Assembly: GCA_965285935.1 (NCBI GenBank)
Contig: OZ260667.1
Location: forward strand, 22,878,001-22,942,000
DNA: 64,000 nucleotides
Source of the DNA: Ophelia neglecta
Taxonomy: Eukaryota
Reading direction: 5' to 3'
Part shown: piece after piece, positions 2,066 through 62,900 of the stretch
How positions within the stretch are numbered: the first letter of the stretch is position 1
Layout: every line of letters starts with the position of its first letter
Program-made: the position numbers and the translations under genes
The notes under the pieces: generated by a model
Database searches by the model: none
Told to the model about the DNA's origin: nothing
Seen by the model: only the letters and a program-made list of their open reading frames with translations

Positions 2066-4109
2066 AGCAATGTGGACATATATCTCACCTTTTGTAGCGT
2101 CTTTGCTCTGGCAATAATGTATTCCACTTTTAATGTTCATAAAGCCCGCCACAGAATATTGAGTATTTGTCCATAGTTTAAATTATTCGAATTTCCCTGT
2201 GCGTGTCCATATAGACAAAAGTATATTCCACACATGGATCGTCTGACTGCAAATGGCGGCCGGGCAAAGGACTCTGGTAAGGAGTAAACAAACAGTATCA
2301 CTTCCCGTTTCAATATGTATAACGGTCTAATAACATAACAGGTATGGACAAAAGTAGTGCGCTTGTCGAAGGTGAAAAAATTGAGAAGTTGAAAAAAATG
2401 ATAGGGAGGGTGTAACCGTTTGGTTTAGGATAAAATGAACTCTCGAAATTAAGAAATTTTATATTACAAGTTACGTTGAACAAATTAAATTTAAGACTTG
2501 TTATTTTGTTTTTCTTACACTTTATTTTTTACTAATAAACAACTGTATATGCTTCTGCCCCTGATCCCTTTCTTTTTTTTTAGATTCCTTTCTTAATAAT
2601 AAAAAAAAGCTTTTATCATATCGATATAGGGAATTTAGCAAAAAGGCAACCATTACTTTGTCTTTTTCCACAGCTGATCCACAGGTGTAAAAATGATCGG
2701 GTTTTTAAGCGTCTGTCTTATTTCAACGTAGAAATTCTTTTTTTTTCGTAATTTATTGTTTTGTGGGGTAATTTTCAGTTGTTTGTCGCTATCATAGTTT
2801 AATAATACCTACACGTCTACACTGTAAACAGTGAAATATTCGCTAGATGGATCGATTTTGTTTCTTGGGGTTTTATGACATTCCAAACGTATTTCATAAT
2901 TCAGTTTCGACTTGAAAGAAAGATAATTATTGCTGGTATCCGATGATCTGGATAATAGGCAATATTCTGTGATGCATTAAAGAAATTACCAATAGATAGT
3001 GAAATGACATTATACGACATGTTGAGTGCATTGGAATGAAAATGTAAGATGTCCAAATATATTTTGCCCTTAAAGGATTTTAAAAGCACCACCATATCTT
3101 CCTCTACAATTGACTTAATTAATAATCATTACCACTTGACGGTCAGTGTTTACGGTACGCCGGTCCCACGTGAGTAATTAGTGACGGCCTTGACCTCCAA
3201 AACCAAAACAGGAATACGGAGGACATACAAACTTTGGTCAATGTTATTGATCAGAAACATCACATTTGGAGGCTAGAGACTAGAAATGGTGGACGAGTGC
3301 AACGTGGTCTATTGGCAGAAGGAGTTTGTAAGTTTACAGTTTATGGTATTGTCCAAGGCTTCACTGAAGGAAGCACCTGTCTGTGAAATCAATCAGAGTC
3401 TAGTTCTGTTTATTAACATGGCCGATCCGGACCATGTATGATTAAACATTAACTCCGGTTCTAAAATGACAATTTTAGGACCATAATGACAGATTCATTA
3501 CGTCTAGTACGTACAATCTCAAACTTAGCAGGAATTGACTTTGGATATTAGGGTTAGGGCCAACAGAAGTCTTGTAACCCCTTCCATTGCCCCACCCACC
3601 CCCACCCGGGTTCTCTTCCCAAACCACCTCCACAACCTAAAAAGCCCTCATAATATTAATATATTTAATGACAGGTCTAATATTAGTATAAGCTCCCTGC
3701 ACTGTCTGAACTTTTTATTCAGAAAGACCTAGCACTTACAGAGATAATAATCGTCAAAACTACTGTCCTTCGTGAGATGCTACTGCATTCATAAATGACA
3801 TTTTGCTGGCTTTGTTCGAGTTACTGGATTATATTTATAATTAAGAGACGGAAATTTGTTTAGAGTCAAAGTCTAAAATTAAAGCCGGTTATCATGAATA
3901 TGCCTGCAATAGTAATAAAACAGACGCCTCCATTAATAATGAATAGTACTCATAATACGTCACAAAACTTAATAAGATACTTTATAAATAACACAATAAT
4001 GTTCCCCAGTTCCCAAATACTGCGTTGTCTAACGTTATTCAACTCATTTTTAAGCGCACAGCTTGAAATTGTGAACTAAATCACGCAGTCTTCAGAAAAG
4101 AGACCATAC

Positions 4110-4570
4110 AAACGCTCCAATTTTCATTTATTTATCCTTACTCATTGTACTGCATAAAAGTGTTGGGCAATACTTTCATGAAATATTTATAGCCCTTGAA
4201 CGTATTATAAGAGCGAGCCATCCGTTGATATCTGGTATCTCAAGTGTATCTCATACTTCACCACATTTCAAAGAACTTAATATTCTAGACCTCCATCAAT
4301 TCTATAAATATTCTATTTTACTATTTATGTATATATATTTCCATGGCCATCTTCCTAATAACATCCGTTGTCTGTTTGATCATAACTCTGATGACCACTC
4401 CAACACCACTAGAAGTGCCAGCCTGCTTTGTGTCCAAAGCTGTAGGCTGTTTGTACTTCAAATTCTACGAAGCATCATAGTGTCAAAATATTTAATGAAT
4501 TTGTGAACATTATTTATTTCAAGGGATCTATCTCCACTTTTTTAAAGGGAATGTCAAATACTATTTCATT
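4110..4570 (+). mobile_element. Decayed CR1-group (L2/Crack/Daphne-like) LINE, ORF2 C-terminal fragment
   Basis: Frameshifted translation contains SFIYPY..YCI.V.GNT, RAIR, and ISGISSVSHTSPHFKELNILDLHQFYKYSILLFMY...HSNTTRSA, typical of the post-RT region of CR1-group LINEs. Confidence 0.75.
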
Positions 4571-11026: not shown

Positions 11027-12564
11027 CTGTATGAATTTTCTAAGATGGTCTGTATTATACATTCATGCTAGCACAGTGAAAAATATGTCTGTTATCGAAA
11101 AATCATAAATAAACGAAACCTAATTAATAAAAAGTATTAATTCCCACAGTAAATTAGGTATATTTATAAATATATACATATATATATGTATACATATATA
11201 TATAAATATTCTGTATAGCTAGGTGATACATTATCGTTTAAAACATGATTTATTGACTTCTCGCTATAAGGTTTTATTCAGAATTTATCTAGTGTCAATT
11301 TATTGTGTAAAAATGTTTAATCAACATTACAAAAGTCCTGCCCCAAAATACTACTTGATACTACTTTAAAGCATCTACCGGAGTCCGTGGAAGTACATTC
11401 TGGAATAAATTGAACACAATTAATATTTTAAAGCATTGGAGTACCATTTATGTATGCGATGGCAGATGTGTCTCCAAAATTTCCAGTGGGCAGGTACTCA
11501 TGTGAACATATTTATGAATTAAAAAGAGTTTTTTTCGAACAGTTTCCTAGTAAAAGCAATGCATCAGAGATAGTCACATTTCAGCACTGCCAAACCAACA
11601 CCACATTGTTGATAAACGCATGAATAAAATGTATAATATCTTATAGTATACAGTGCGTATACTCACAAGGACCTCTGCACATTACAAACATGATGATGTA
11701 GAAGTTAAGTTTGAGGTAAGATGTCTTGCCCTAAAATTCGATAACACTATTGGGCATCGGTGAAATTCAGTTAGTGGGTCGGGGGATTTTATTTGGTAGG
11801 TACTAGAAGTGATCAAAAACTTTAATCTGGGATAATTAGGGCCTAAGGTCTAAACAACAACATGTAAAGCACATTCCACTTTGTTCAAATCTTAGTCATT
11901 TCAGTTTAATTTCTTTAAATAATATCCAATTGTAAAAAGCAGTCTTTTGATTAAAAATAGTGTAGGGTACAAACTACAGAATATAACAGTACGTAAAATA
12001 TGTAAGAACATTTAGATAAAACTGTCTTGTCAAGCTATTGATTCTTGATACTTGCGCTCTATGGCATGAAAATAAAATGGATAATAAACTGTCAAAATAT
12101 TATATATTATTCGCCGATATCCTTCAATGACGTGACTTGTTATTTTTTCCCCGAACATTATACGATGTTTGACATTTATATAATTACTCACGAGCTGTAT
12201 TTTTCTTCTAGCTGTGCTACAAATTACCTACGCTAGCTGTATCTGCAAATAACAAGGAAAATGTTTAGACATGTAACGCCATATAGTTGTAATAAACATA
12301 TAATCTATAATCATAGAGAGTTTTTACTAAATGTTTATTGCTTTGTGGGCAACACATAACAGATAAAAAATTGTTTTCCGATGCCCAATGCCCGTAGAGG
12401 CAAGATTGATTTTTTTATTAATCCCGGCTTCCGGCGCCCTTCCTTGTTTGCCGTTTAAGACTTAGGAAAAGGGTAATTAACGAATTAGTTAAATATCGTC
12501 AACTAAACTCAAACTCTAAAGATGAAATCAACCTACAACTCAGAGTTCGTTGCCCATCCAGACT
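11027..12564 (+). repeat. Copy 2 of the long direct duplication
   Basis: Same sequence as 1-1538. The true left boundary cannot be defined because copy 1 is cut by the window edge. Confidence 0.95.
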
Positions 12565-13499
12565 GATGTGAACCCACTATCATCCACGCGAAGGAAAATG
12601 GGGGGGGGGGAGTCTTATGTCGGCCTATTCTAAAAAGTAATAGAATCAATTAAATTAATTATTTCTGCCTGCATTAAAACGTGTTTATAAACACTGTGTA
12701 CATCAGGCTCCAGTAGGTTGGATGAGTTAACCCCTGTGTTTGGTTAATCAGATGCCCCGTAACCAGAGTCAGATATTTTCTAATGTAAGCGTGACTTGGT
12801 CAAACAGTTATTTTGGGTAAAGGTTAGCACGTGTACAATTTAAACTGGACGCTCCGAGAGATTCTGTAGAAGAATCTATTTAACAAAGGCAATGCCTGGA
12901 ACTTTATAATCAAATGTTCCCGTTACAAAACGGATAACCTTGTTTTGAAATATTTATATCTTTAGAAATAAATTGTCGCAGCTGCAAATCCCCAAATATG
13001 ATGCATGAATCTAACAAGGGCTGAACAATGGAACCCTATCATGCTTATTTCTGAAAACTTTCTGCTGTCGGGCAAACAACGTTGCTATTGGGAAGAGTTT
13101 CATCAAAAACTAAACTCCAAGATATTTCGCAGTTTCATTTTCTGGCCTTTACTGTTAATCAATGTATCAAAGGAGAATAATTTTGTCTGAATAAAAAACC
13201 CACTATCTTGTACAAGGTGGCATTTAACTTCCCTTACAGCCTAACCTGTTTTTTGTTCAGTAAATATTAGCAGATGTCAGTACAAATGGTGCAGTGCTAC
13301 ACACACCTTGCATTTTTGTCTGCAATAAATACATAACGGGAGGTCTAATCTGAATCTCATTCAATAGTAGTTAAAGTTGACCTTGGTAGCACTTCATTAG
13401 TTGTCTTCAAATACTACTCTTGACAAGGATAGACAGCCAGTCATCGTTAGGTTGAGACATCTGAAATAATTAAGAATGCTAATTACGAGTGTGAAGCTT

Positions 13500-13657
13500 T
13501 AAGGCCTGTTTCCTTATCATTTAAGTGATTCAGCTAAAATAATGTCTAATGTCGATATGTCGGTGTGCGTGTAGTTGTGGGAGGGGTCAAGTAGAGGCCT
13601 TTTGGGTTCGAAATAAAATTTCGGAGCCATAACCTATATGAATTTTTACTATAGGCC
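13500..13657 (+). repeat. Left target-site duplication (158 bp; partner 14497-14654)
   Basis: Colinear at offset 997, with 6 substitutions counted by eye and no indels. Confidence 0.9.
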
Positions 13658-14496
13658 TGCTGGACACATTCTACAAGTTCCGTCTTACAGAAACACTCAT
13701 GTCGTGGCTCCACAAAGGTCAGGCGACCCATAAGAGACAATGGAAACTACATGTCCAAAATGTTACAAAACAATTACTAGAAGACGACTGGAGACTCCTG
13801 TGTGTAATGTCTCCGTCCCTGGACATCTACCGATTAATGTTCAATAAGTATGGGCAGTTCGAGTGGTGGAAGTCTGCAAAGACCATGAAGGCCATCAGAG
13901 GGGTACAAACAATCTTGAAGTTCATTACTAAATCGTCAGCTCTATATACCCACTTTGGGAGGTATGTATCACCTCATATCTCTGAATGTCCTCTGTGCCG
14001 CTCGGGAACAGACAGCCTCGCCCACTTTCTCCTACAGTGCGAAGCTTTAAGCGATGAGAGGTCCGAAATACAACGACGAATGATAGTCACAGAGGGCTAT
14101 TTTAACCCGTGCCTGAGAATGCTCCATTGGGACACCTACCTACCTGGGGATCGTCAGACCGTCCTAACTGTCCTTTCTGCCATGTACCAGAGGCGAGTTC
14201 ACTGCACCGCTGTGTAAATGCTTATATGATAATATCAAACCAAATGTAAAAACAAAATGTGTCGACGTCCTGCACCCCATATAAACCAAAATACCAGTAA
14301 AACTACCGGAGGGGTGGTCAAATAAAAGCAATACTGTTTATCTTGTGTGAAAGCTGCTGTAATCTACTTATTCATTTATTTTTGTACATACCTTTTTTCC
14401 TATGGTTTTCCAGTTTGAATTTTGACTGCCTGTATTTTCATACATGTACTACTATATGCTCTTCGGAAAGCGGAGGTTAATAAAACATAATAATAA
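13658..14496 (+). mobile_element. 5'-truncated non-LTR retrotransposon (RTE/RTEX-like) with (TAA)n tail and 158-bp TSD
   Basis: Frame is open from the 5' junction to 14217 and contains the CCHC knuckle CPLCRSGTDSLAHFLLQC. The 3' UTR ends AATAAAACA(TAA)4. Flanked by direct repeats 13500-13657 and 14497-14654. Confidence 0.9.
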
Positions 14497-15033
14497 TAAG
14501 GCCTGTTTCCTTATCATTTAAGTGATTCAGCTAAAATAATGTCTATTGCCGATATGTTGGTGTGCGTGTAACTGTGGGAGGGGTCAAGGAGAGGCCTTTT
14601 GGGTTCGAAATAAAATTTCGGAGCCATAACCTATATGAATTTTTACTATAGGCCATATTAACATAAGCTATCTATCTTAACTGAATCATAGAAAATAGAC
14701 ATGTACGCGGCGCCTACTGTATCCAGAGCACGCGATCTATTATAGGCCCAATGATGCTGAACAAAAGCCAACAGCTTTAAGGGCGGGAACAATGCGCCTC
14801 TTTTACAAGTTTTCCGGGGGAGAAAAGGCAGAAAACCGAGGCCCTCCTATAGGTCCAAAAGGGGAGAAAATCAAAACACCGACCCTGGGGCTAAACCTAG
14901 ACCCTCTTATCAATTCCATGAAGGAAAATCCATGATCCCCCCATCCCTTAAACGTACCTCCTGGCCATACTGGTTACTTTTGACGGGGACTTAATATCAC
15001 AGGCAATAACTTCGGGGGGGGGGGGGGGGGGGG

Positions 15034-15302
15034 GCGACAGCAAGGAGTTTATCCGCGAATATGTATAGTTGTTGACTGCCAATTATGCTATAAGATTGAG
15101 TATTGAATATTGTAGTTATTCGTTTGTAAGGGAGACAAGAAAAGTATGTGCACCAGTAATGAAATTAACTAATTGAAACAGTTTAATGTTGTAAATTTCA
15201 TGACAAAGGCCACTACATGGTCAGACTGGTTAAAATGACCATATAAACTCCATTTCAAAGAGAAAAAAACCTTAACTATATTTTTTGCAGTTATTAATAA
15301 AG
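15034..15302 (+). repeat. Diverged dispersed repeat (partner ~17049-17397)
   Basis: Both begin GCGACAGCAAGG.GT.TATCCG and share TGCTATAAGATTGA, GACAAGAAAAGT, CATGACAAAGGC and AACTCCATTTCAAAGA in the same order. Confidence 0.8.
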
Positions 15303-16489
15303 TAAACTAGTCAACTTATTACTTCACTTTTCATGAATCACAGCGAAAGTGACATAGATTGTCAATAGATATTACATGACTCACTATGCAAAATTTGAAA
15401 CAAATATCTTGCTTAGTTTCAAAGATATGGCCAAAAAGGTGTTTTCAACAAAATGATTAATACAATTATTATTGATAATAAAATAAAGTTAACTGGTAGC
15501 CTTATTAATATTATTGTTAGACACAATGTTAAACCAAACCAACTGGAGCATTGTGTTTATGTTCAAAAAGAAAGTATATACTAACTACCATTTTAAAGGT
15601 CAAGTCACATTGATTATTGGTATCTACATTAAATCTTATATATAGTTGCATGACAGCATTATAAAACAGGGAGATCACAAGTTCTCATAGGAAGCATTGC
15701 AAAAGAAACCTCCAATTATACAGTTATTTTTTTTCTCAAATTGACAAGGCTTTGTTTTGTGCTGTCGGAGAAATATAAGCAACACCCCTTTTAAAATCCA
15801 ATGGCATTGTGGTTGCTAACATAAAAGTCAATCAGATCTAATTTCTGCACCAGATATGGGCTGATCTTGACAATGTATATACTGTGTGAATTCTAATATA
15901 ACTTTTAATCATACTGCTTGTTAACCTGCATGAATTGAATATCATCTAATCATTCAAGATTTTTGAGTTGCCATCAGCTAAACCTCTGCCTTCATAAGCA
16001 AGAATAAGGATAAGATTTTTAACAATATAATATATGTTAAGCTATATAAACCATGAATTGACCTGAATTATTCTATTTATCTTTGTGTCTAGTCATCAAT
16101 ATCACCCTAGACAGAGCTATGGTGATATTCCCTCATTGAATTTCCGAAAATCCCATGTATAATTTCCAAGGGAAGACATAAATGTGGGAATACTTTATAG
16201 TATTTTGTGTTGAACATCGCATAAAAGTTTGAAATGCCAGCTAAAGTTGATAACGTAATTCTCAGGTACCGCCCATCTTCCATCATCGCCGCTAAAAAAA
16301 TGTTTCATAATAATTTTGCTTATTAAAAAAAGCTACCACCATCAGCATATTCGTGTTGGGAAACAAAGCCGCCCGCCTCTATTGCACATGTAATAAATTG
16401 TTATACTCGGCCAGATACATAATACTGAGTTAAGTTGAAAGTGAGCCTGTTTTATATATTAAAAATTTGATCGATAGGAAACAAATATG

Positions 16490-17048: not shown

Positions 17049-17397
17049 GCGACAGCAAGGGGTATATCCGTTAATGTGTGCAATTTCTTATTGGCGAAAA
17101 TGCTATAAGATTGATTAACGAATATTGTAGAAGTGAGTTTGTAAGCAAGACAAGAAAAGTGTGCGCACCATTAATAAAATTAACAAATTGAAATCGTATA
17201 ATGTTGTAAAATGCATGACAAAGGCATGGTCAAACTGCCCAATATAACTCATTAAAAAAGATCTAAAAGCTTAACTAATTTTTCTATGATTATTAATAAA
17301 GTTAACTCAATAACCAATTACAAATGATTAAAGTGTCCATATTAACTCCATTTCAAAGAAAAGACCCTTAACTGTTTTTTGCAGTTATTAATAAAAA
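17049..17397 (+). repeat. Diverged dispersed repeat (partner 15034-15302), with an internal duplication of its 3' part
   Basis: Colinear similarity to 15034-15302. The AACTC...CTTAACT...TTATTAATAAA block occurs twice here. Confidence 0.8.
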
Positions 17398-48632: not shown

Positions 48633-49778
48633 TTATGAATGAAAGGTCCAAACATGTGGGAGGCCGCATAGTTCAAACCCCATGCGTGCTGCCATTTTTG
48701 CCAGACCCTCAGTTTCAATGTGGTTTTCGAAAACAAATGGAGGAAAAATAAGTCCTTTTCGGTGGCAATTAGCTCTCACAAGTAAAACACACCCTCCAAC
48801 ACCATCGATTTTTACAACATTTCCTTCTTTATGGATAGCAGGCAAGTATATTCGTTTGCTTTCATCGTATCCTTCAAGCATTAAGAATTCTCTGTTCACC
48901 TTGCTCAGGAACTCCTTAGAGCGATTGGTTTCACGCCACGTGTTCCTGTCGTAAACCAGCGAAACCCCGGTCCCAGCAGTGTACATGCAAGACGGAGCAA
49001 CGATGTCCTTTTCTGCTGAGAGGAGATGTTGAATTAAATCAGGGGGGACGTATTTCACATCACTGTCTATCCACAACACCCAGTCTTCATCAGTGATCCC
49101 GCGAGCCATTAACTGATTACGCGCAAGCGCCAAATGACCCCTGCGCACGCGCTGGAATCCCGGATCGTGCCGTGTAAACGCTGGGCGCTGGCGTAAGCCC
49201 TCCGCCGACCGGAAGACGCTGATTTTCCTGAAATGGTGTTCTAGTTTATCAGCATGCACTTTAGCTATCGAAAACGTCTTGTCCGTGCTCGTGTCCTCGC
49301 CTAACGCTATAGAAATCAGCTCGTGGGGATAGCTAAGGCTACAGAGTAAGTGAAAATAATGTGCTAAGTGGGATGCTGCATTTGACACGGGAGTTAATAT
49401 CACAATTTTCGAAGTAAAATTCTGTTTGAACGCCTCAGAATAATTTGACTTTTGAGACAACTGCAGAAACTTCTCATAGTCACGGTCCTCCGTTTTATTC
49501 ATTATGTATCCTGAGGGGCATTTTGGAGAAATGGTCGCAAGTTTCGGCACTTGGCAACCAGCCCTCGTCAGCTGATAAACCGATTCAGAATTAATGTCTA
49601 GTTGCGTTGTTCCTACGTTTGACACAACTCGGATGTAGTTGGTTCTGTGATGAATAAGTAGGTAAAGAATCATACAAAATGTTCCTATGTTAAACACAAC
49701 GAACATATTTTTCCATGTCGGAGTCATTTCCGGTGCGTTACCTCTGACTGCAACCGCACACGATGTTTTAGCAAGCAT
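48633..49778 (-). CDS. Anp1/Mnn9/Van1-like (GT62, GT-A fold) glycosyltransferase, type II membrane protein, single coding exon, 381 aa
   Basis: Intact ORF with an N-terminal TM anchor (MFVVFNIGTFCMILYLLI). Family motifs: IVILTP, LSYPHELISI, QRVRRGHLALARNQL, WVLWIDSDV (DxD), IDGVGGCVLLVRA..HR.G..FP, IETEGLAKMA..MG. A polypyrimidine/AG acceptor lies 24 nt upstream of the ATG (exon starts at 49802). Candidate 5'-UTR donors are at 51329 and 51910. Confidence 0.9.
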   Translation of the reverse strand: MLAKTSCAVAVRGNAPEMTPTWKNMFVVFNIGTFCMILYLLIHHRTNYIRVVSNVGTTQLDINSESVYQLTRAGCQVPKLATISPKCPSGYIMNKTEDRDYEKFLQLSQKSNYSEAFKQNFTSKIVILTPVSNAASHLAHYFHLLCSLSYPHELISIALGEDTSTDKTFSIAKVHADKLEHHFRKISVFRSAEGLRQRPAFTRHDPGFQRVRRGHLALARNQLMARGITDEDWVLWIDSDVKYVPPDLIQHLLSAEKDIVAPSCMYTAGTGVSLVYDRNTWRETNRSKEFLSKVNREFLMLEGYDESKRIYLPAIHKEGNVVKIDGVGGCVLLVRANCHRKGLIFPPFVFENHIETEGLAKMAARMGFELCGLPHVWTFHS

Positions 49779-50728
49779 GAAATAGCCTCTAGACTAAACG
49801 CACTGAAACAATGAAAGAAAGTTTAGTTAAACCAATAACAGTTGTGAAAAGTATTCAATAATTCTTCCTGATAAAATGCATAGGCCTTGACATTGACCAT
49901 TGGGGGTATTGAAGTCACATATAACCCATCGGAAAATAATGCCAGCTAAAATTTGACAGCATCGCCAAAGATAGGCAAGCTATTTTCATTCTGGCTACAC
50001 GCGGCATAAGCCCACCAGAGAAGTGGCGTGGGGTACAAGTCCTGACAGTTACACAAACACTGATCATAGTGGCTGCTCTGACTAGTCGGAATGAATGAAT
50101 TGTAGATATATTTGATAATTTAAAAGATATTTCCAGTCAACATATGCCCAAGCTGCATGTACTGTAGTATCAAGTACCAAAATGCTGTCACAAGTCAGTT
50201 ATTGCTTAAAGCTTGTATTGCATTTATAAAACAGCATATAGTAACAAAACTATGACCCTTAAAGCGTGGTTTAAGAGACAAAACTATTTATAACTTGTTT
50301 TCATCTGTTATGAGAAATAGGCACGGTCAAACGTTTAATTAAAAATGATTATTTTGATTTTAAACAGAGAAAGGACAGCATTTGCAGCTATTCAATGAAC
50401 CCTTCCCTGTAGTATCGCCGGAGTATCATACGAAGGCTTACACATTTCAGGCCTACATGTACAATAAAGTATGAATTAAACAACATTTGCCCTGGCAAAT
50501 GTACTCTCACCCAAGGAAGTTCGTAAAAGGAAAGTTTTTCCACTTATTCTCAAGCGAATTAGCTGAATTCCAAATCACACATTGTAAAATAATCTTTAAA
50601 TACGCGTTAGGCCTACGTGTGTATGATATTTTACGTCGACTCACCCTTAGGTTCGTAGACACAATAGTGTTTTTCAATTACTCTTGCGGCATATAATATG
50701 ATAACGATTTACCTGACAATAAATATTA

Positions 50729-52652: not shown

Positions 52653-54095
52653 TGCTAGGTTAGTTCCACTCGGAACTTTCCCACAATACATGCTAGGTAA
52701 GTTCCACTCGGAACTGTCCCACAATACATGCTAGGTTAGTTCCACTCGCAACTGGTTCACAGTACATGATAGGTCAGTTCCACTCGGAACTGTTTCACAA
52801 CAGATGATAGGTCAGTTCCACTCAGAACTGTTTCACAATACATGATAGGTTTGTTCCACTTGGAACTGTCCCACAATACATGCTAGGTTAGTTCCACTCG
52901 GAACTGTCCCACAATACATGCTAGGTTAGTTCCACTCGGAACTGTCCCACAATACATGCTAGGTTAAGTTCCACTTAGAACTGTTTCACAATACATGCTA
53001 GGTTAGTTCCACTCGGAACTATGCTAGGTTTGTTCCACTCGGAACTGTTCAACAATACATGCTAGGTTGGTTCCACTCGGAACTGTCCCACAATACATGC
53101 TAGGTTTGTTCCACTCGGAACTGTCCAACAATACATGCTAGGTTAGTTCCACTCGGAACTATGCTAGGTTTGTTCCACTCGGAACTGTTCAAAAATACAT
53201 GCTAGGTTAGTTCCACTCGGAACTGCCCCACAATACATGCTAGGTTTGTTCCACTCGGAACTATGCTAGGTTTGTTCCACTCGGAACTGTTCAACAATAC
53301 ATGCTAGGTTAGTTCCACTCGGACCGGCCCCCAATACATGCTAGGTTTGTTCCACTCGGAACTGTCCAACAATACATGCTAGGTTAGTTCCACTCGGAAC
53401 TATGCTAGCTTTGTTCCACTCGGAACTGTCCAACAATACATGCTAGGTTAGTTCCACTCGGAACTATGCTAGCTTTGTTCCACTCGGAACTGTTCAACAA
53501 TACATGCTAGGTTAGTTCCACTCGGAACTGTCCCACAATACATGCTAGGTTAAGTTCCACTTAGAACTGTTTCACAATACCACAGGTGCTAGTGTCAATG
53601 TCAATGCTACCCACTGTGTATAAGAGCGAAGCGCTTCGCTCTTATACACAGTGGGTAGCATTGACATTGACACTAGCACCTGTGCACAATACATGCTAGG
53701 TTAGTTCCACTCGGAACTATGCTAGGTTTGTCCCACTCGGAACTGTTCAACAATACATGCTAGGTTAGTTCCACTCGGAACTGTCCCACAATACATGCTA
53801 GGTTTGTTCCACTCGGAACTGTCAAACAATACATGCTAGGTTAGTTCCACTCGGAACTATGCTAGGTTAGTTCCACTCGGAACTGTCCAACAATACATGC
53901 TAGGTTAGTTCCACTCGGAACTGTCCCACAATACATGCTAGGTTAGTTCCACTCGGAACTGTCCCACAATACATGCTAGGTTACTTCCACTCGGAACTGT
54001 CCCACAATACATGCTAGGTTAGTTCTACTCGGAACTGTCCACTCGGAACCGTCCCACAATACATGCTAGGTTAGTTCCACTCGGAACTGCCCCAC
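52653..54095 (+). repeat. Minisatellite of ~38 units (38-bp long form and 26-bp short form), each with an internal hairpin
   Basis: Consensus CATGCTAGGTTAGTTCCACTCGGAACTGTCCCACAATA. The short form lacks GTCCCACAATAC. AGTTCC-actc-GGAACT is an inverted repeat. Confidence 0.97.
53581..53684. mobile_element. Perfect 104-bp palindromic MITE with 8-bp TSD (P-element-like or hAT-like)
   Basis: 52-bp arms with no spacer and no mismatches; termini CACAG...CTGTG; CACAATAC duplicated at 53573-53580 and 53685-53692. Confidence 0.9.
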
Positions 54096-56907: not shown

Positions 56908-59900
56908 TTACAAGTGTGAAATCTCTAAGGAATTCTGGTCAACTAATGAATTGGTGGTGGATGATTTTGTTGTTGTGCAAGGCCTGCAAAATATAACGTA
57001 AAAACGACTTGTAATGTGTCAACAATACTTTAAGTACGGCCTAATCTCTCGACCCGTTTCCACAGAGATAAAAAGTCCGAACCAATACATGTGCCAAAGT
57101 GATGTATGTTTGTTTTTATAATTCGGTTCGACGTTATTATTTAAAGCAGGTATACCTTCCAAATGCCTCCGCTTCTTCGACGGTATCGGTGAGCGAACAG
57201 CCTCTAGTTTCGGGCAGGAAGTATGTCAGGGCTCCAGCTATAGTGCCCGATGCCCCAAATATCGTTGCTTGCATTGGGAGCCATATTCCTGTCTATCAAA
57301 ACGAGATCTTTATAACTTCATTTTTGCCAAATTTAATGCAAATTAACTACACGGTGCAAACTTTTTTTGAGACTAAGCAGGTTTAATATTTAATTTTAAA
57401 AATTCATAAAATAAAATTATAACAGATAAAAGTAATGGTTGTGAAACAAAGACCAAATTGCACCTGTGCAGTAAACAAAGTACAGTCGAATGTATGGGCA
57501 ATCATCGGACTGAGCATATTAACCCTTAACTTGCAGATGCCCTCAATTTCAAAACTGCCTTTTTTATTAAATCATTTGCCAATTGACAGTTTATCTTTAG
57601 TACACATAACAAATAAGAGTATGCCCTACTGTTAGGTATTATTGTAAGTGCAATCATTGGTTTTACATATAACACCTTAGTTCCAAAAAGTTGCAATCAG
57701 AAAATCTTTATATGCCCATTTGGTTAAGTTTGTGGGTGGTAGTTTATTATCTTCTTCTTCACATGCATCATTCACTCTTAGCAGCCTCAAAATCAACTCC
57801 TTATTGCCTTTAATTCGGAAAGTTTTAGCGGAGTCAAGGGGCCAAAATCTTGCCCTTAATTCTTGATTCAGAGGTGCCCTTTATACATTGCTATCTCTTA
57901 TTAATCCCATGAAAATCTGACGGGACTGAACAAAAGCGCCCTTAATTCAAAGATACCCTAATTCACAGATACGCACAGGGACAGATTCGACCGTATGTCC
58001 TACATTACTACATTCCTAGCGATATCTATGCAGCGTGTAATTGCATTACCAGAAAGATTATTCAGGTTTGGTATGACTGGAGGGAGTAAGAGTCAAAGGG
58101 GACGGATGTGTCATCAAAATTACGAGTAAATCGTCTCTTGACATTTTGTCATATTTGAATAAGTTCTTAACTCACCAATGGCGCTCCCATATAAGGCGCT
58201 GCCATGCCACCGACTCGAGCTACCATCGAGCAGACCCCGAATCCGGTGTTTCTCACCTCCGTCGGAAATATCTCTCCCGAGTAGACAGTCAAACCAGAGA
58301 AACTGATGGTGACAAAGCCTCTCCCAATAAGTGACACCGTCGTATGTGCTGTGCCGAAATCATATAGCAACAAGGGAATTGTGATAAAGCAAGACATTCC
58401 AGAAGCGACGAGGGCAATGCCGGAAGTAAGTCTTCGTCCAAGAAATCTCCAGTCGAAGCAGAATATGACAAGAATGTGGGCGGGAATTTCTATTAAACCG
58501 GAAAGAAACAAGTTGAGGTACACATCCCCGGACAAGGCAGCCGTGTTCAGTGTGAGCGAATAGTACACCAAACTATTCACGAACCTAATGAATAGAAAGA
58601 ACTGATATTCGATACAATGCTCCAGCGTGTATACCTTGATAACAAATCGATATAAAAGCCTGGTTTAGAAGGAATGGACTATTCCCATTGACATAGCTAG
58701 GGGCCACTATACAATATTTACGGAGAAGGTAAAATAAATATATATGTTACCATTTTTTGTCTTCAATTTTTGTTAGATGACATTTTTGGCAGTTGATTAA
58801 TTTACTTCGCCTTTGAAACATAAAAGAGGTGGACTGGGGGACAGGGCACCTATCATTTAAATCATACCCAACGTGGTTCTGGCAAAACGCGATATTATCT
58901 TAAATCCCTAAACGATTAGTCGCAAACAGCCAAGCGGTTATGTACGCTATGGGTCGATTGTACGCCGGTCATTTTATAATCCATCGCCAAAGCGGCAATT
59001 AGAGAAAAACTATTCTCGGATTGCTTTTTCGCGTCATCAATTTGATGCCGCCACACCGATATTCGCTTCATATCTGATGGGCAGATAGGATTTTTACCTC
59101 AGGAAGGTTTATCATGAAGGGTAAACAATTTTTTTCCATTCGAAAAATGTAAATGTGTCTTCATGAAACTAGACTGATTGGTAGTCGGATCATTATGAGA
59201 ATGGTCAATAATGACAAATGATAAAGACCAATATTATTCTAAAAGTAAATGATAAATTTGTCTTCTTATTTATTGTATGCAATAAGTACCAGTAGTATTG
59301 CACTAATTAATAATAACTCATTCTAATCTACACTACGATCTAATAACCCATTGTAAACCACGATAACCAACGATAACCCACAATAAATCACGACAAGCTG
59401 CGATTATCACGCTAAATCACGATAAACCAAAATAACCTGCGATAGACCACGATAAACCACAATAACTCACAATAAACCACGAGAACCCACGATAACCCAC
59501 ACTGATAATATTGGCCTTCAAAAACTTAGTCAAAATGACTAACTTAGATTAGTCACGAGAAAATGACTAACCTAACTTAGTCAGAAAAGGACAATGTTAG
59601 TCAAATGGCTAATGTTCCTTAGTCAGGAGTTATTCCACCTCGTACATTCAGCCTTGAACTTGACACACAACTAACGTATCTATAGAACCCCCCCCCCCCC
59701 CGCTCAAGGGGTCTACTATACACATAGGCTTGTTCCAGAATGTCAGAATGACCCCCTAAAGGAAGGAAACCGGCTTGGTTTTCAACCTCTTTTTTCACGG
59801 GCTTTTTTACTGACTTGACCCGCCTAAAAGAAAGGTTTGGCTGTAATCCACCCCCTAAAAGAACATTATATTTCTCGGGGACGGGTTATAATATACCACT

Positions 59901-62900
59901 TTTTCTTATTTCTCGGGGTTAGTTTGAAATTACCCCTTTTAATTTTTTTTCGCGGAGAAAGTAGGAAAGGACCCCTTAAGGTCATTCTTTTCAGTCCCTT
60001 CTCCTTTCAATGTATAGGCCTATAATATTGTATATATATGAATATATATCTTGTAGGTAAAATCATATTGATTTACTTGTCATGTAGTCTGGAGCGCCTG
60101 TGTATTTTAGCATGAAACTTATATTTATTTATGATGTTCTCTGCAACTGAAATCGCAATATACTACTCACAAATGCGTTCACACGCGTTCACCTTCTCGG
60201 GCATCTTTGCTACTTTCGCCAACACACCGGAAGGCAGAAAGCGCGACCTCCATGTGCTCCAAGGACGAAGCGGGTCGGACATCACAAGTTCAATTTACTG
60301 GCAAGTGGTTACATCAAAGTTTTTTTATCTTCAATTTATATGAGCCCGTTTGAAAGTAGGACTATAGATCCTGTTTTTCCATCAGAGCTTTTATTGAAAT
60401 CAGCCTCTCTCGACAGACCACTTGCATGGAGAGACGATCATATGGGTTGTCTTAGCTAGGCAGTCTCACTATAATTTTTTAACACTTGTATTTTGATGTA
60501 TGTACTTGTATAAAGCATGGTACTTTTTTAATTTCAGAGACCCGGCTTGTATATAAAAACTGATATACCCGTATCCAGGTTCTCCGAAGAAGACATCTTC
60601 AGGCTGTCCTGCTCCTATTGTATGCCACCTGCATCTTCAACCTGTTGTACAATGATAAGTGAGGCGCACTTGTATAATAGTAGACTATTTTTTATATGAA
60701 ATTATATTTGTATGAATCCCTCTTTGGTATCAGGGAATAGGCAATTCTCACTGTTGAGCAGGTTCTATGTCACGTAGGGCTGTTCCATTGAACAAGTGTA
60801 AGGCATTATTTTTAATGTTAGTAAATAAAAGTTAGAACAGAACAATGTTTCGTTATGATCCCCTAAAATACAGATTTATCCCTTTGGGTAACTTAGGTTA
60901 GTCATTTGACTAACTTTTGTTAGTCATTTGACTAACTTTTGACTAACATGACTAACACGGGTTAGGACATTGGCACTTAGCCACAAAGACTAAGGTAAGT
61001 TAGTCATTTTGACTAAGTTACTTAGTCAATATATTTTCAGTGCACGATTACTCACAATAAAACACGATAACTCACAATAACCTACGATAACCTGCGATAC
61101 CTTGCAATAACTTACATTAATCACAAAAAAATGTGGTGATGGAAAACTGCATGTCAGTTCAGAAAACAGCACCAGAAGCACGTTTAAGGATTTGTTAATC
61201 AAATTCTGTTACATATACATGTATTATTGGCCATGATTTTTTTTTAACCATTGGCAAATTGGACTTATACATGGTGCATTTAAGTCCGTCGCTTGCGTTC
61301 CGTTACTGGTGCAAGGACCGCTCGAGCTGTTGCAAATTTCTATCCTATCGGTGGTTTTTCGATAATTTCAGGTCCCCCTTCCGGATACTAGATAGCTTTA
61401 GGCGAAACTAGGACAAAACCACCCCTTGGTCCCCAAATGCTGCCAAGGTACACAACTCTACTCGGATGCCCGGCAATGTCTTCAATGGGTGGAGGGGTTA
61501 TGGGAACGGAGTGACTGCAGAAAAGCACTTTGTGTGCTTATTTGCCAGATGAAATATAGTCCACCTAGTCACTGTGTCCCTCAAAAGGTATACATGGAGA
61601 GAAACCATCTAATTTCTAACATGAGGAAAAAGGTTTCAGTTTAAACCATCTGTTTCATTGTTAATGATACGTCAGTTTGTATAAAAAGGATAAAAGTTTA
61701 AAATGAATATTATCATTTTGATATCATAAAAGTAAGGTTAGTTCAGACATATATATTGAAACTAGATCCCTTCCATAGCTTGGAGCTAATCTAGGTAGGT
61801 CCAGAGCATGTGTCGATTCGAATCGAGATGGTCTGGCATTTTAAAAGAAACCCTTAAACACCAGACAGCCATGTGCTTCCCTGACTAAAAGTCGTGTAGG
61901 CATGTTACCAATGAAGGCAGAGGACTAAAGTCCAAACTCTAAGGCGCTTCGTCTTCACCAGGGCTAAACAATTTTGTTGTTTTAATGGTTCGAAGATTTC
62001 GATCTGCAAAAGAAAATTTATCATTTAGTGGGAATTTAGTTTCGAAAAAAAGAAAACAAAATCGTTTTAAATATCCATGTGATAGGAATCACAAAACAAA
62101 GTGCCCACCTTTTCCTTTTCTAGAGCATATAAATCAATATGCTCCGGAAAGTGTTTTCCATTGACCTTTGCAATCTTCTTCAGAACATTGCCTGCCTTTT
62201 TAAACCGACGTCTTTCAAGAAGCCACCGAGGTGACTCGGGCAACAACCTATAAAGAGTACACTTATCAATTCAAGACACCCAACTAATGTTTATTTATTG
62301 TTCTCTTCATTCTAGTTAGTGGATGGTTATAATTATGCAACTATAAATACCAAAAGTCAGCAGATAATCAACAAATTTATACAACACACCAATCCTGACA
62401 AGATGACAAAATAATATGGCCCATTGAATATTAATGCACATAAAACAAACAAAAGATCATTAACATGTGTCGTATATAAATCTATAGGGTTAAAACCGGT
62501 GATTATGAAATATGAAATTGATTCCATTAGTTACAAATATCAATTACTGCGAGGCTTATATTCACCATGTTCAAACTTACCAAACATGTGAAATAAAAAT
62601 AATGTTTGGAAGCAACATGGCCAACTGCAGCATCCGGTCATCTCTGATAGCGTAAGCTAAGCCGGAAACTACCATTATGCCGATCGCAAAGGATATATTG
62701 GACGCAACACCAAGGGATGTCCGATAAGCCGAGCCTACTATTTCCATTACTAACGGCAAGAGAAAGTTAATGAATAATTGACATAATCATGTAATTGTTC
62801 AAAGTGTAGAGAACATGGACGCTACTTCAATGTAGTTAGAGATTCAGGTAGAGTAGCCGGATGGTTCGGAAGGTCGACTCCCAGACGAAAGTTTTACGAT

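Follow-up and report, generated by a model that had tools for sequence, protein, structure and literature searches.

A young 5'-truncated LINE copy in Ophelia neglecta with a probable 153- to 158-bp target-site duplication, likely produced by ordinary TPRT with a distant second-strand break

Our analysis of a 64-kb stretch of Ophelia neglecta DNA (the whole of which is here called the window) points to a young, 5'-truncated LINE copy that duplicated 153 to 158 bp of single-copy DNA upon insertion. We consider it probable that this copy arose by ordinary TPRT, with an unusually distant second-strand break and with no specificity of the element for AGGCC. A long target-site duplication (TSD) is the best reading of the 158-bp repeat around the LINE copy, since the depth of the repeat is that of single-copy DNA and one contig appears to represent the empty site.

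The insert consists of the last ~840 bp of a multi-copy LINE. Its coding part comprises the C-terminal ~185 codons of ORF2, which are 5'-truncated and open on the plus strand from 13658 to 14217 (stop at 14215-14217), and the open frame that contains them, 13642-14217, spans into the insert. A zinc knuckle of the form C-X2-C-X8-H-X4-C lies at 13987-14040 (+); its residues C110, C113, H122, and C127 are invariant in the alignment of relatives. The insert has a weak Pfam zf-RVT match (E 0.0011, below the curated cut-off). The 3' UTR of ~270 bp (14218-14487, +) closes with a small predicted hairpin (14461-14475) followed by AATAAA (14479-14484). It is followed by a (TAA)n tail at 14488-14499 (+), in which (TAA)3 occupies 14488-14496 and the last TAA (14497-14499) doubles as the first three letters of the duplication. 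Frame, motif, and tail coordinates thus bear out the first-pass annotation of this DNA, which had described a 5'-truncated LINE with an open frame, a CCHC knuckle, and a (TAA)n tail. The insert also behaves as a dispersed LINE, combining 5' truncation with an intact 3' end, a simple-repeat tail, and several different 3' flanks among its copies. Six of the eight coding differences between the window copy and the majority sequence are synonymous, which argues that the window copy is young and stems from a slightly different, recently active lineage. An exact 28-nt pattern of the 3' end had no match in metagenome contigs, and in a word-seeded protein search for longer forms that contain the fragment, not one of 98 candidates scored.

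The left copy of the duplication (copy A, 13500-13657, +) and the right copy (copy B, 14497-14654, +) both abut the element ends directly. BLAST recovered them as a direct repeat of 158 bp with 96.2% identity (E 9e-71) that starts with TAAGGCCT, ends in TAGGCC, and contains an internal AGGCCT, exactly as had been described before. At the 3' junction, TAA is common to the tail and the start of the duplication, so that 0 to 3 letters can be assigned to either side. At the 5' junction, CC (13656-13657, +) belongs to the target end as well as to the element at its truncation point: the element upstream of the truncation reads ...GGTGT-CC-TGC, and in all three contig runs described below the element contigs start matching the window at 13656, with a loose end before that position. 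The 0 to 3 shared letters at the 3' junction and the 0 to 2 at the 5' junction allow 12 break registers, which give a TSD length of 153 to 158 bp. A BLAST search with 13400-14900 found no second copy of the insert or of the repeat in the 64-kb window, and a clade-profile search and a search for the terminal hairpin pattern each returned one match in the window, in both cases the LINE copy at 13658-14496 itself.

We compared the region from 13100 to 15000 with contigs, not reads, from three runs (X1, X2, and X3) of one sample, which is possibly the source of the window. The 158-bp segment has a depth of 15.3 in X1, next to 15.3 and 13.7 for its flanks, and is covered by one contig in each run; on these grounds, we rejected the segment as the end of a MITE or as another repeat. 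The element itself stands at ~11 to 18 times flank depth beside the truncation point in all three runs (227/15, 76/5-7, and 197/11; rough values) and higher still at its 3' end, and its contigs extend 5' of 13656. An X3 contig joins 13499 to 14497 without a mismatch, skipping 997 bp, and thus reads as left flank, right copy, and right flank; this apparent empty-site contig carries the right-copy letters. In X1, a contig joins the left flank to right-copy letters and breaks off at 13657, precisely the point at which a branch into the element would be expected, and in X2, a contig runs from the tail into the right copy without a mismatch. That one place was resolved in three ways in three runs indicates that graph simplification was at work, so that an empty allele with a single 158-bp copy is likely and could also be a graph product. 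The right-copy version was retained in all three runs, which mildly favors it as the commoner one, and contig depth is too noisy to tell a heterozygous from a homozygous insertion.

The same contigs bear on whether the structure, or at least the set of six letters by which the left copy differs from the right, could be an assembly artefact such as a two-haplotype join. These six letters are absent from all listed contigs of the three runs, none of which crosses the 5' junction either. Furthermore, the window contains a pair of segments (1-1538 and 11027-12564) that are 100% identical over 1538 bp, lie 11,026 bp apart, reach the left edge of the window, and end abruptly; this pair is either a segmental duplication of very recent date or a duplication made in the assembly. 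Nevertheless, the tail-to-right-copy junction is present without a mismatch in the X2 contig, the X1 contig ends at the expected branch point, and contigs drop bubble variants, so that the absence of the left-copy letters from them proves nothing. We therefore regard an assembly artefact as scarcely credible.

The six substitutions between copy A and copy B, at offsets 50, 53, 62, 75, 76, and 93, lie within 13549-13592 of the left copy. They span 44 of the 158 bp (P 0.006, or 0.02 with the dinucleotide counted once), in agreement with the earlier observation that all of them cluster in ~45 bp. If the empty-site contig of X3 is real, all six differences are in the left copy. Their number exceeds expectation at a divergence of 0.4 to 0.55% per copy (P 0.002 to 0.03) and is unremarkable at 1.2 to 1.5% per copy (P 0.18 to 0.34). 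Two of the changes turn the left copy into a perfect repeat of the adjoining AATGTC, which would suit slippage. A single event is the most likely cause of the cluster. We give about half of the weight to a divergent allele as the source of the letters, copied either during fill-in or later, and about a third to error-prone fill-in, with separate mutations taking the rest.

An origin outside TPRT would account for the cluster in another way. In this scenario, the LINE would have inserted at the junction of a pre-existing tandem duplication, or a break repair that duplicated 158 bp would have taken up LINE cDNA, and the six clustered differences, more numerous than the apparent youth of the copy predicts, would fit copies with separate histories. 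However, the insert lies exactly between the two copies and has an intact tail, an overlap of tail and target, and 5' microhomology, all of which are TPRT hallmarks. The site is moreover single copy on one contig, and the differences become unremarkable at the higher divergence range given above. We consider such an origin improbable and retain a TPRT insertion as the preferred reading.

Within that reading, we propose that the APE of the element made its nick in the bottom strand, at 5'-CCTT^AAAG or CCTTA^AAG. The exposed TT or TTA would then pair with the UAA tail and prime cDNA synthesis. After ~840 nt, the cDNA would anneal via CC, flanked by an imperfect TAGG..CC match, to a 3' end of the top strand ~155 bp away. 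The probable source of this distant end is a host nick, or else unwinding and trimming, and not a fixed second cut. Finally, fill-in of both single-stranded stretches would duplicate the interval. Passages of published work offer parallels: in RTE-clade elements, the first TSD base follows the tail repeat (PMC6007223); the ends of truncated LINE inserts are joined through annealing at microhomologies (PMC4245944); extremely long L1 TSDs accompany 5'-truncated inserts (PMC2912911); and a distal, unrelated nick has been proposed for long L1 TSDs in cells deficient in NER (PMC5223499). In the last of these sources, L1 TSDs of >100 bp make up to 10% of inserts in HeLa cells and 57 to 91% in NER-deficient cells. 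The long TSD in the window is thus probably a rare outcome of the ordinary mechanism, a judgment that represents a prior and not a count, since the other copies were read with one flank at most. The nucleosome-like spacing comes from one event.

The first-pass annotation had instead proposed an endonuclease that nicks both strands directly 3' of AGGCC, one nucleosome apart. Its statement that both breaks fall 3' of AGGCC, 155 bp apart, stands in so far as the register is compatible with the sequence, but this register is just one of 12, and it assigns TAA to the element while assigning CC to the target; with equal treatment of the two, the symmetry is gone. When the shared letters are counted as target bases paired with the element, the first nick falls at one of the two positions given above, an ordinary T-rich/A site, whereas the AGGCC register leaves the UAA tail without target bases to pair. 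The reported enrichment of AGGCC was reproduced, with 105 occurrences on both strands of the window versus 51 expected from base composition (2.06-fold). An inverted 5-mer is common to both breaks of the proposed geometry in 1.5% of 354,880 randomly drawn position pairs given equal register freedom, but the motif was chosen post hoc; allowing the 5-mer on either side of the cut raises the figure to 2.9%, and allowing any orientation raises it to 6.1%.

The target region is also a local cluster of the motif. In the pre-insertion allele, five AGGCC starts fall in 340 bp (13502-13653 and 14650-14839), with spacings of 93, 58, 94, and 95 bp and no evident repeat unit. The junctions of other copies speak most directly against nicking at AGGCC: GGCC occurs in none of the six displayed 3'-junction rows (28 to 30 letters each; three distinct resolved sites) and is absent directly after the tails of the relatives L001 to L003, and the terminal CC at the 5' junction is element sequence. 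The six displayed rows (of 14, counting eight further loose-end rows) consist of four single-contig rows with three distinct flanks (beginning with CAAGAC, GGTATT, and CAGCCG) and two mixed rows, and some of the readable 3' flanks may come from related families with the same last 40 to 55 bp. The AGGCC symmetry is thus mildly unusual and contradicted as a rule. The element likely lacks AGGCC target specificity, and we consider the double-nick proposal very improbable.

Several other sequences of the sample match only the last 40 to 55 bp of the element (14444-14498 in the window, with loose ends) and probably come from related LINE families or from short dependent elements. The loose ends that precede 14444, 14456, and 14458 could be taken for 5' junctions of very short copies. 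We rejected this, as at least one of these sequences can be aligned by eye with the 3' UTR and looks like a diverged relative; they probably represent related families that have the terminal hairpin in common. None of these three loose ends ends in AGGCC.

The affiliation of the element was approached through its relatives. The 185-aa fragment has 37 relatives at E ≤ 0.001 (the best at 6.9e-13, with 31% identity), and RVT_1 was found in 11 of 14 relatives scanned (E ≤ 0.01). A profile built from nine relatives matched 475 proteins at E ≤ 1e-30; among the 120 matches listed, many are 1150 to 1230 aa long and carry APE and RT. The C-terminal CCHC pattern is present in 55 of the 56 stored relatives of 1100 aa or more, and Exo_endo_phos and RVT_1 occur together in all three full ORF2s from related loci. 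The combination of APE and RT is thus a property of the relatives, the window copy having lost both domains. Through the APE, RT, and CCHC of these relatives, the earlier view of an RTE-superfamily-like element gains support.

ORF1 is at least 480 aa long in L002, 674 aa in L006, and at least 300 aa in L005; L002 lies inside the main group of the C-terminal tree, and L005 and L006 lie outside it. In that tree of 41 rows, the window fragment sits on a long branch (2.46), outside every starred small set. According to passages of PMC3905857, ORF1 is rudimentary or absent in strict RTE elements, which is not what we found in the in-group relative L002, and an SGNH esterase occurs in ORF1 of some RTE-X members. 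The ORF1s of the three relatives, two of which are cut at the 5' end and none of which comes from the window's own family, had no esterase match in Pfam. Taken together, the features of the relatives point to the Proto2/RTE-X section of the RTE superfamily and away from strict RTE. A long ORF1 and a C-terminal CCHC are marks of Proto2/RTE-X. Judged by its relatives, the element is likely a Proto2/RTE-X-like member of the RTE superfamily, a label for which we presume these motifs to be diagnostic.

The 3' ends of the distant relatives L001 to L004 share the layout of the window copy, a small hairpin followed by AATAAA and a microsatellite, and this conserved end is likely an RT recognition signal for the clade. 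The hairpin folds are individually weak (z -1.57 for the window copy), and the fold of the whole of 14380-14500 is no better than that of shuffled sequences (z 0.21). Among the terminal layouts kept (14455-14499 of the window and L001 to L004), the tail units vary and comprise TAA, TTA, CATA, and ATTGA.

It is also conceivable that TSDs of ~100 to 200 bp are normal for this LINE family and involve no sequence specificity, the second strand being resolved at a distance set by the host, such as a nucleosome or the end of an Okazaki fragment. Rte-1 of C. elegans may also have long TSDs, with repeats of ~200 bp. Family-wide long TSDs have precedents in R9 (126 bp) and Dualen-4b (more than half of TSDs >50 bp, median of 900 bp), according to passages of the bioRxiv preprint 10.1101/2022.05.23.493040, and no short-TSD copy of the window family was seen either. 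However, passages of PMC6007223 place RTE-clade TSDs mostly at 7 to 15 bp, and those of SR3 measure 10 to 12 bp (PMC1291365, in part). A long flanking repeat was also absent at the best 6 related loci (of 80 kept from 297 confirmed), a result that is nearly uninformative, as most of these contigs lack one end. We consider long TSDs as a family trait unlikely. In a fuller version, the family would routinely resolve the second strand about one nucleosome or Okazaki fragment away, yielding TSDs of ~150 bp, and a fill-in templated by the homologous chromosome or made by an error-prone polymerase would leave a cluster of substitutions in one copy. We judge this version quite unlikely. A rare, distant second-strand break in an otherwise ordinary insertion accordingly remains our preferred reading.

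Beyond the insertion, the window holds several features of separate interest. An uninterrupted 386-aa frame at 48633-49793 (-) has a strong match to Anp1 glycosyltransferase (E 3.7e-53), and a frame at 58167-58664 (-), probably one exon, has a weak match to an MFS transporter (E 0.00095). A 143-aa frame at 4075-4506 (+) resembles, by eye, the C-terminal end of a second, older LINE ORF2. A composite minisatellite at 52653-54095 is built from 26- and 38-bp units with higher-order periods of 64 and 102 bp. Two related arrays of a 10-bp unit (59343-59554 and 60988-61099), with a 32-bp inverted match and ~1.5 kb apart, are possibly the ends of a nonautonomous DNA transposon. Finally, 15034-15308 and 17049-17307 form an older, diverged duplicate pair with 74% identity over 276 bp.

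The finding would matter if duplications of ~150 bp proved to be the norm in this family. How LINE integration deals with the second strand is poorly understood, as passages of PMC4245944 state, and a family-wide, fixed long spacing would provide a natural, APE-only system in which the question of the second cut becomes testable. It would also constitute a steady source of small tandem duplications that are missed by annotation tools designed for short TSDs; the search ranges described in passages of two studies were 10 to 49 bp only (PMC6007223) and 5 to 30 bp only (PMC2912911).

With respect to known systems, the relatives resemble Proto2/RTE-X in their long ORF1, an ORF2 of 1150 to 1230 aa with APE, RT, and C-terminal CCHC, and a microsatellite tail. 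This is a likeness by features; the nearest stored relatives are only 21 to 36% identical over the fragment. Proto2 and RTE-X are sometimes confused by classifiers, according to passages of PMC10294476. With the strict RTE elements (RTE-1, BovB, and SR3), the window copy shares an AT-rich trimer tail and a tail base that matches the start of the TSD, but it differs from them in TSD length, which is mostly 7 to 15 bp there in the passages of PMC6007223, and its in-group relative L002 has an ORF1 of at least 480 aa, versus a rudimentary or absent one in strict RTE. The annotators' view of very long TSDs as known mainly from the RTE clade did not hold against these passages; the long cases verified are L1, R9, and Dualen. 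In the open literature searched, to which subscription papers and Repbase reports did not belong, no statement of long TSDs turned up for RTE, RTE-X, or Proto2, nor any TSD data for Proto2 or RTE-X.

A close parallel is human L1, whose long TSDs (termed L-TSDs when >20 bp, and reaching >100 bp; passages of PMC4245944, PMC5223499, and PMC2912911) likewise accompany 5' truncation and 5' microhomology. The two are also alike in APE type, which for the window element is taken from its relatives, in a T-rich/A-compatible nick, and in duplications of >100 bp as a minority outcome. In contrast to the L1 inserts, which were obtained in cultured cells, the window copy is a natural genomic copy of a non-L1 family with a (TAA)n tail, and the six clustered differences between its TSD copies are a feature of its own. 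R9 of Adineta vaga, with its 126-bp TSD, and Dualen-4b of Chlamydomonas, with its median of 900 bp, share with the window copy a duplication of at least 100 bp flanking a LINE (bioRxiv 10.1101/2022.05.23.493040, in part). There, however, the long TSD is a family trait, whereas the window LINE provides one copy; moreover, R9 is rDNA specific and R2 related and Dualen combines RLE with APE, whereas from the relatives of the window element Pfam recovers APE alone. The window copy thus represents one more natural LINE with a very long duplication, from a poorly described clade, and adds little to what L1, R9, and Dualen have already revealed.
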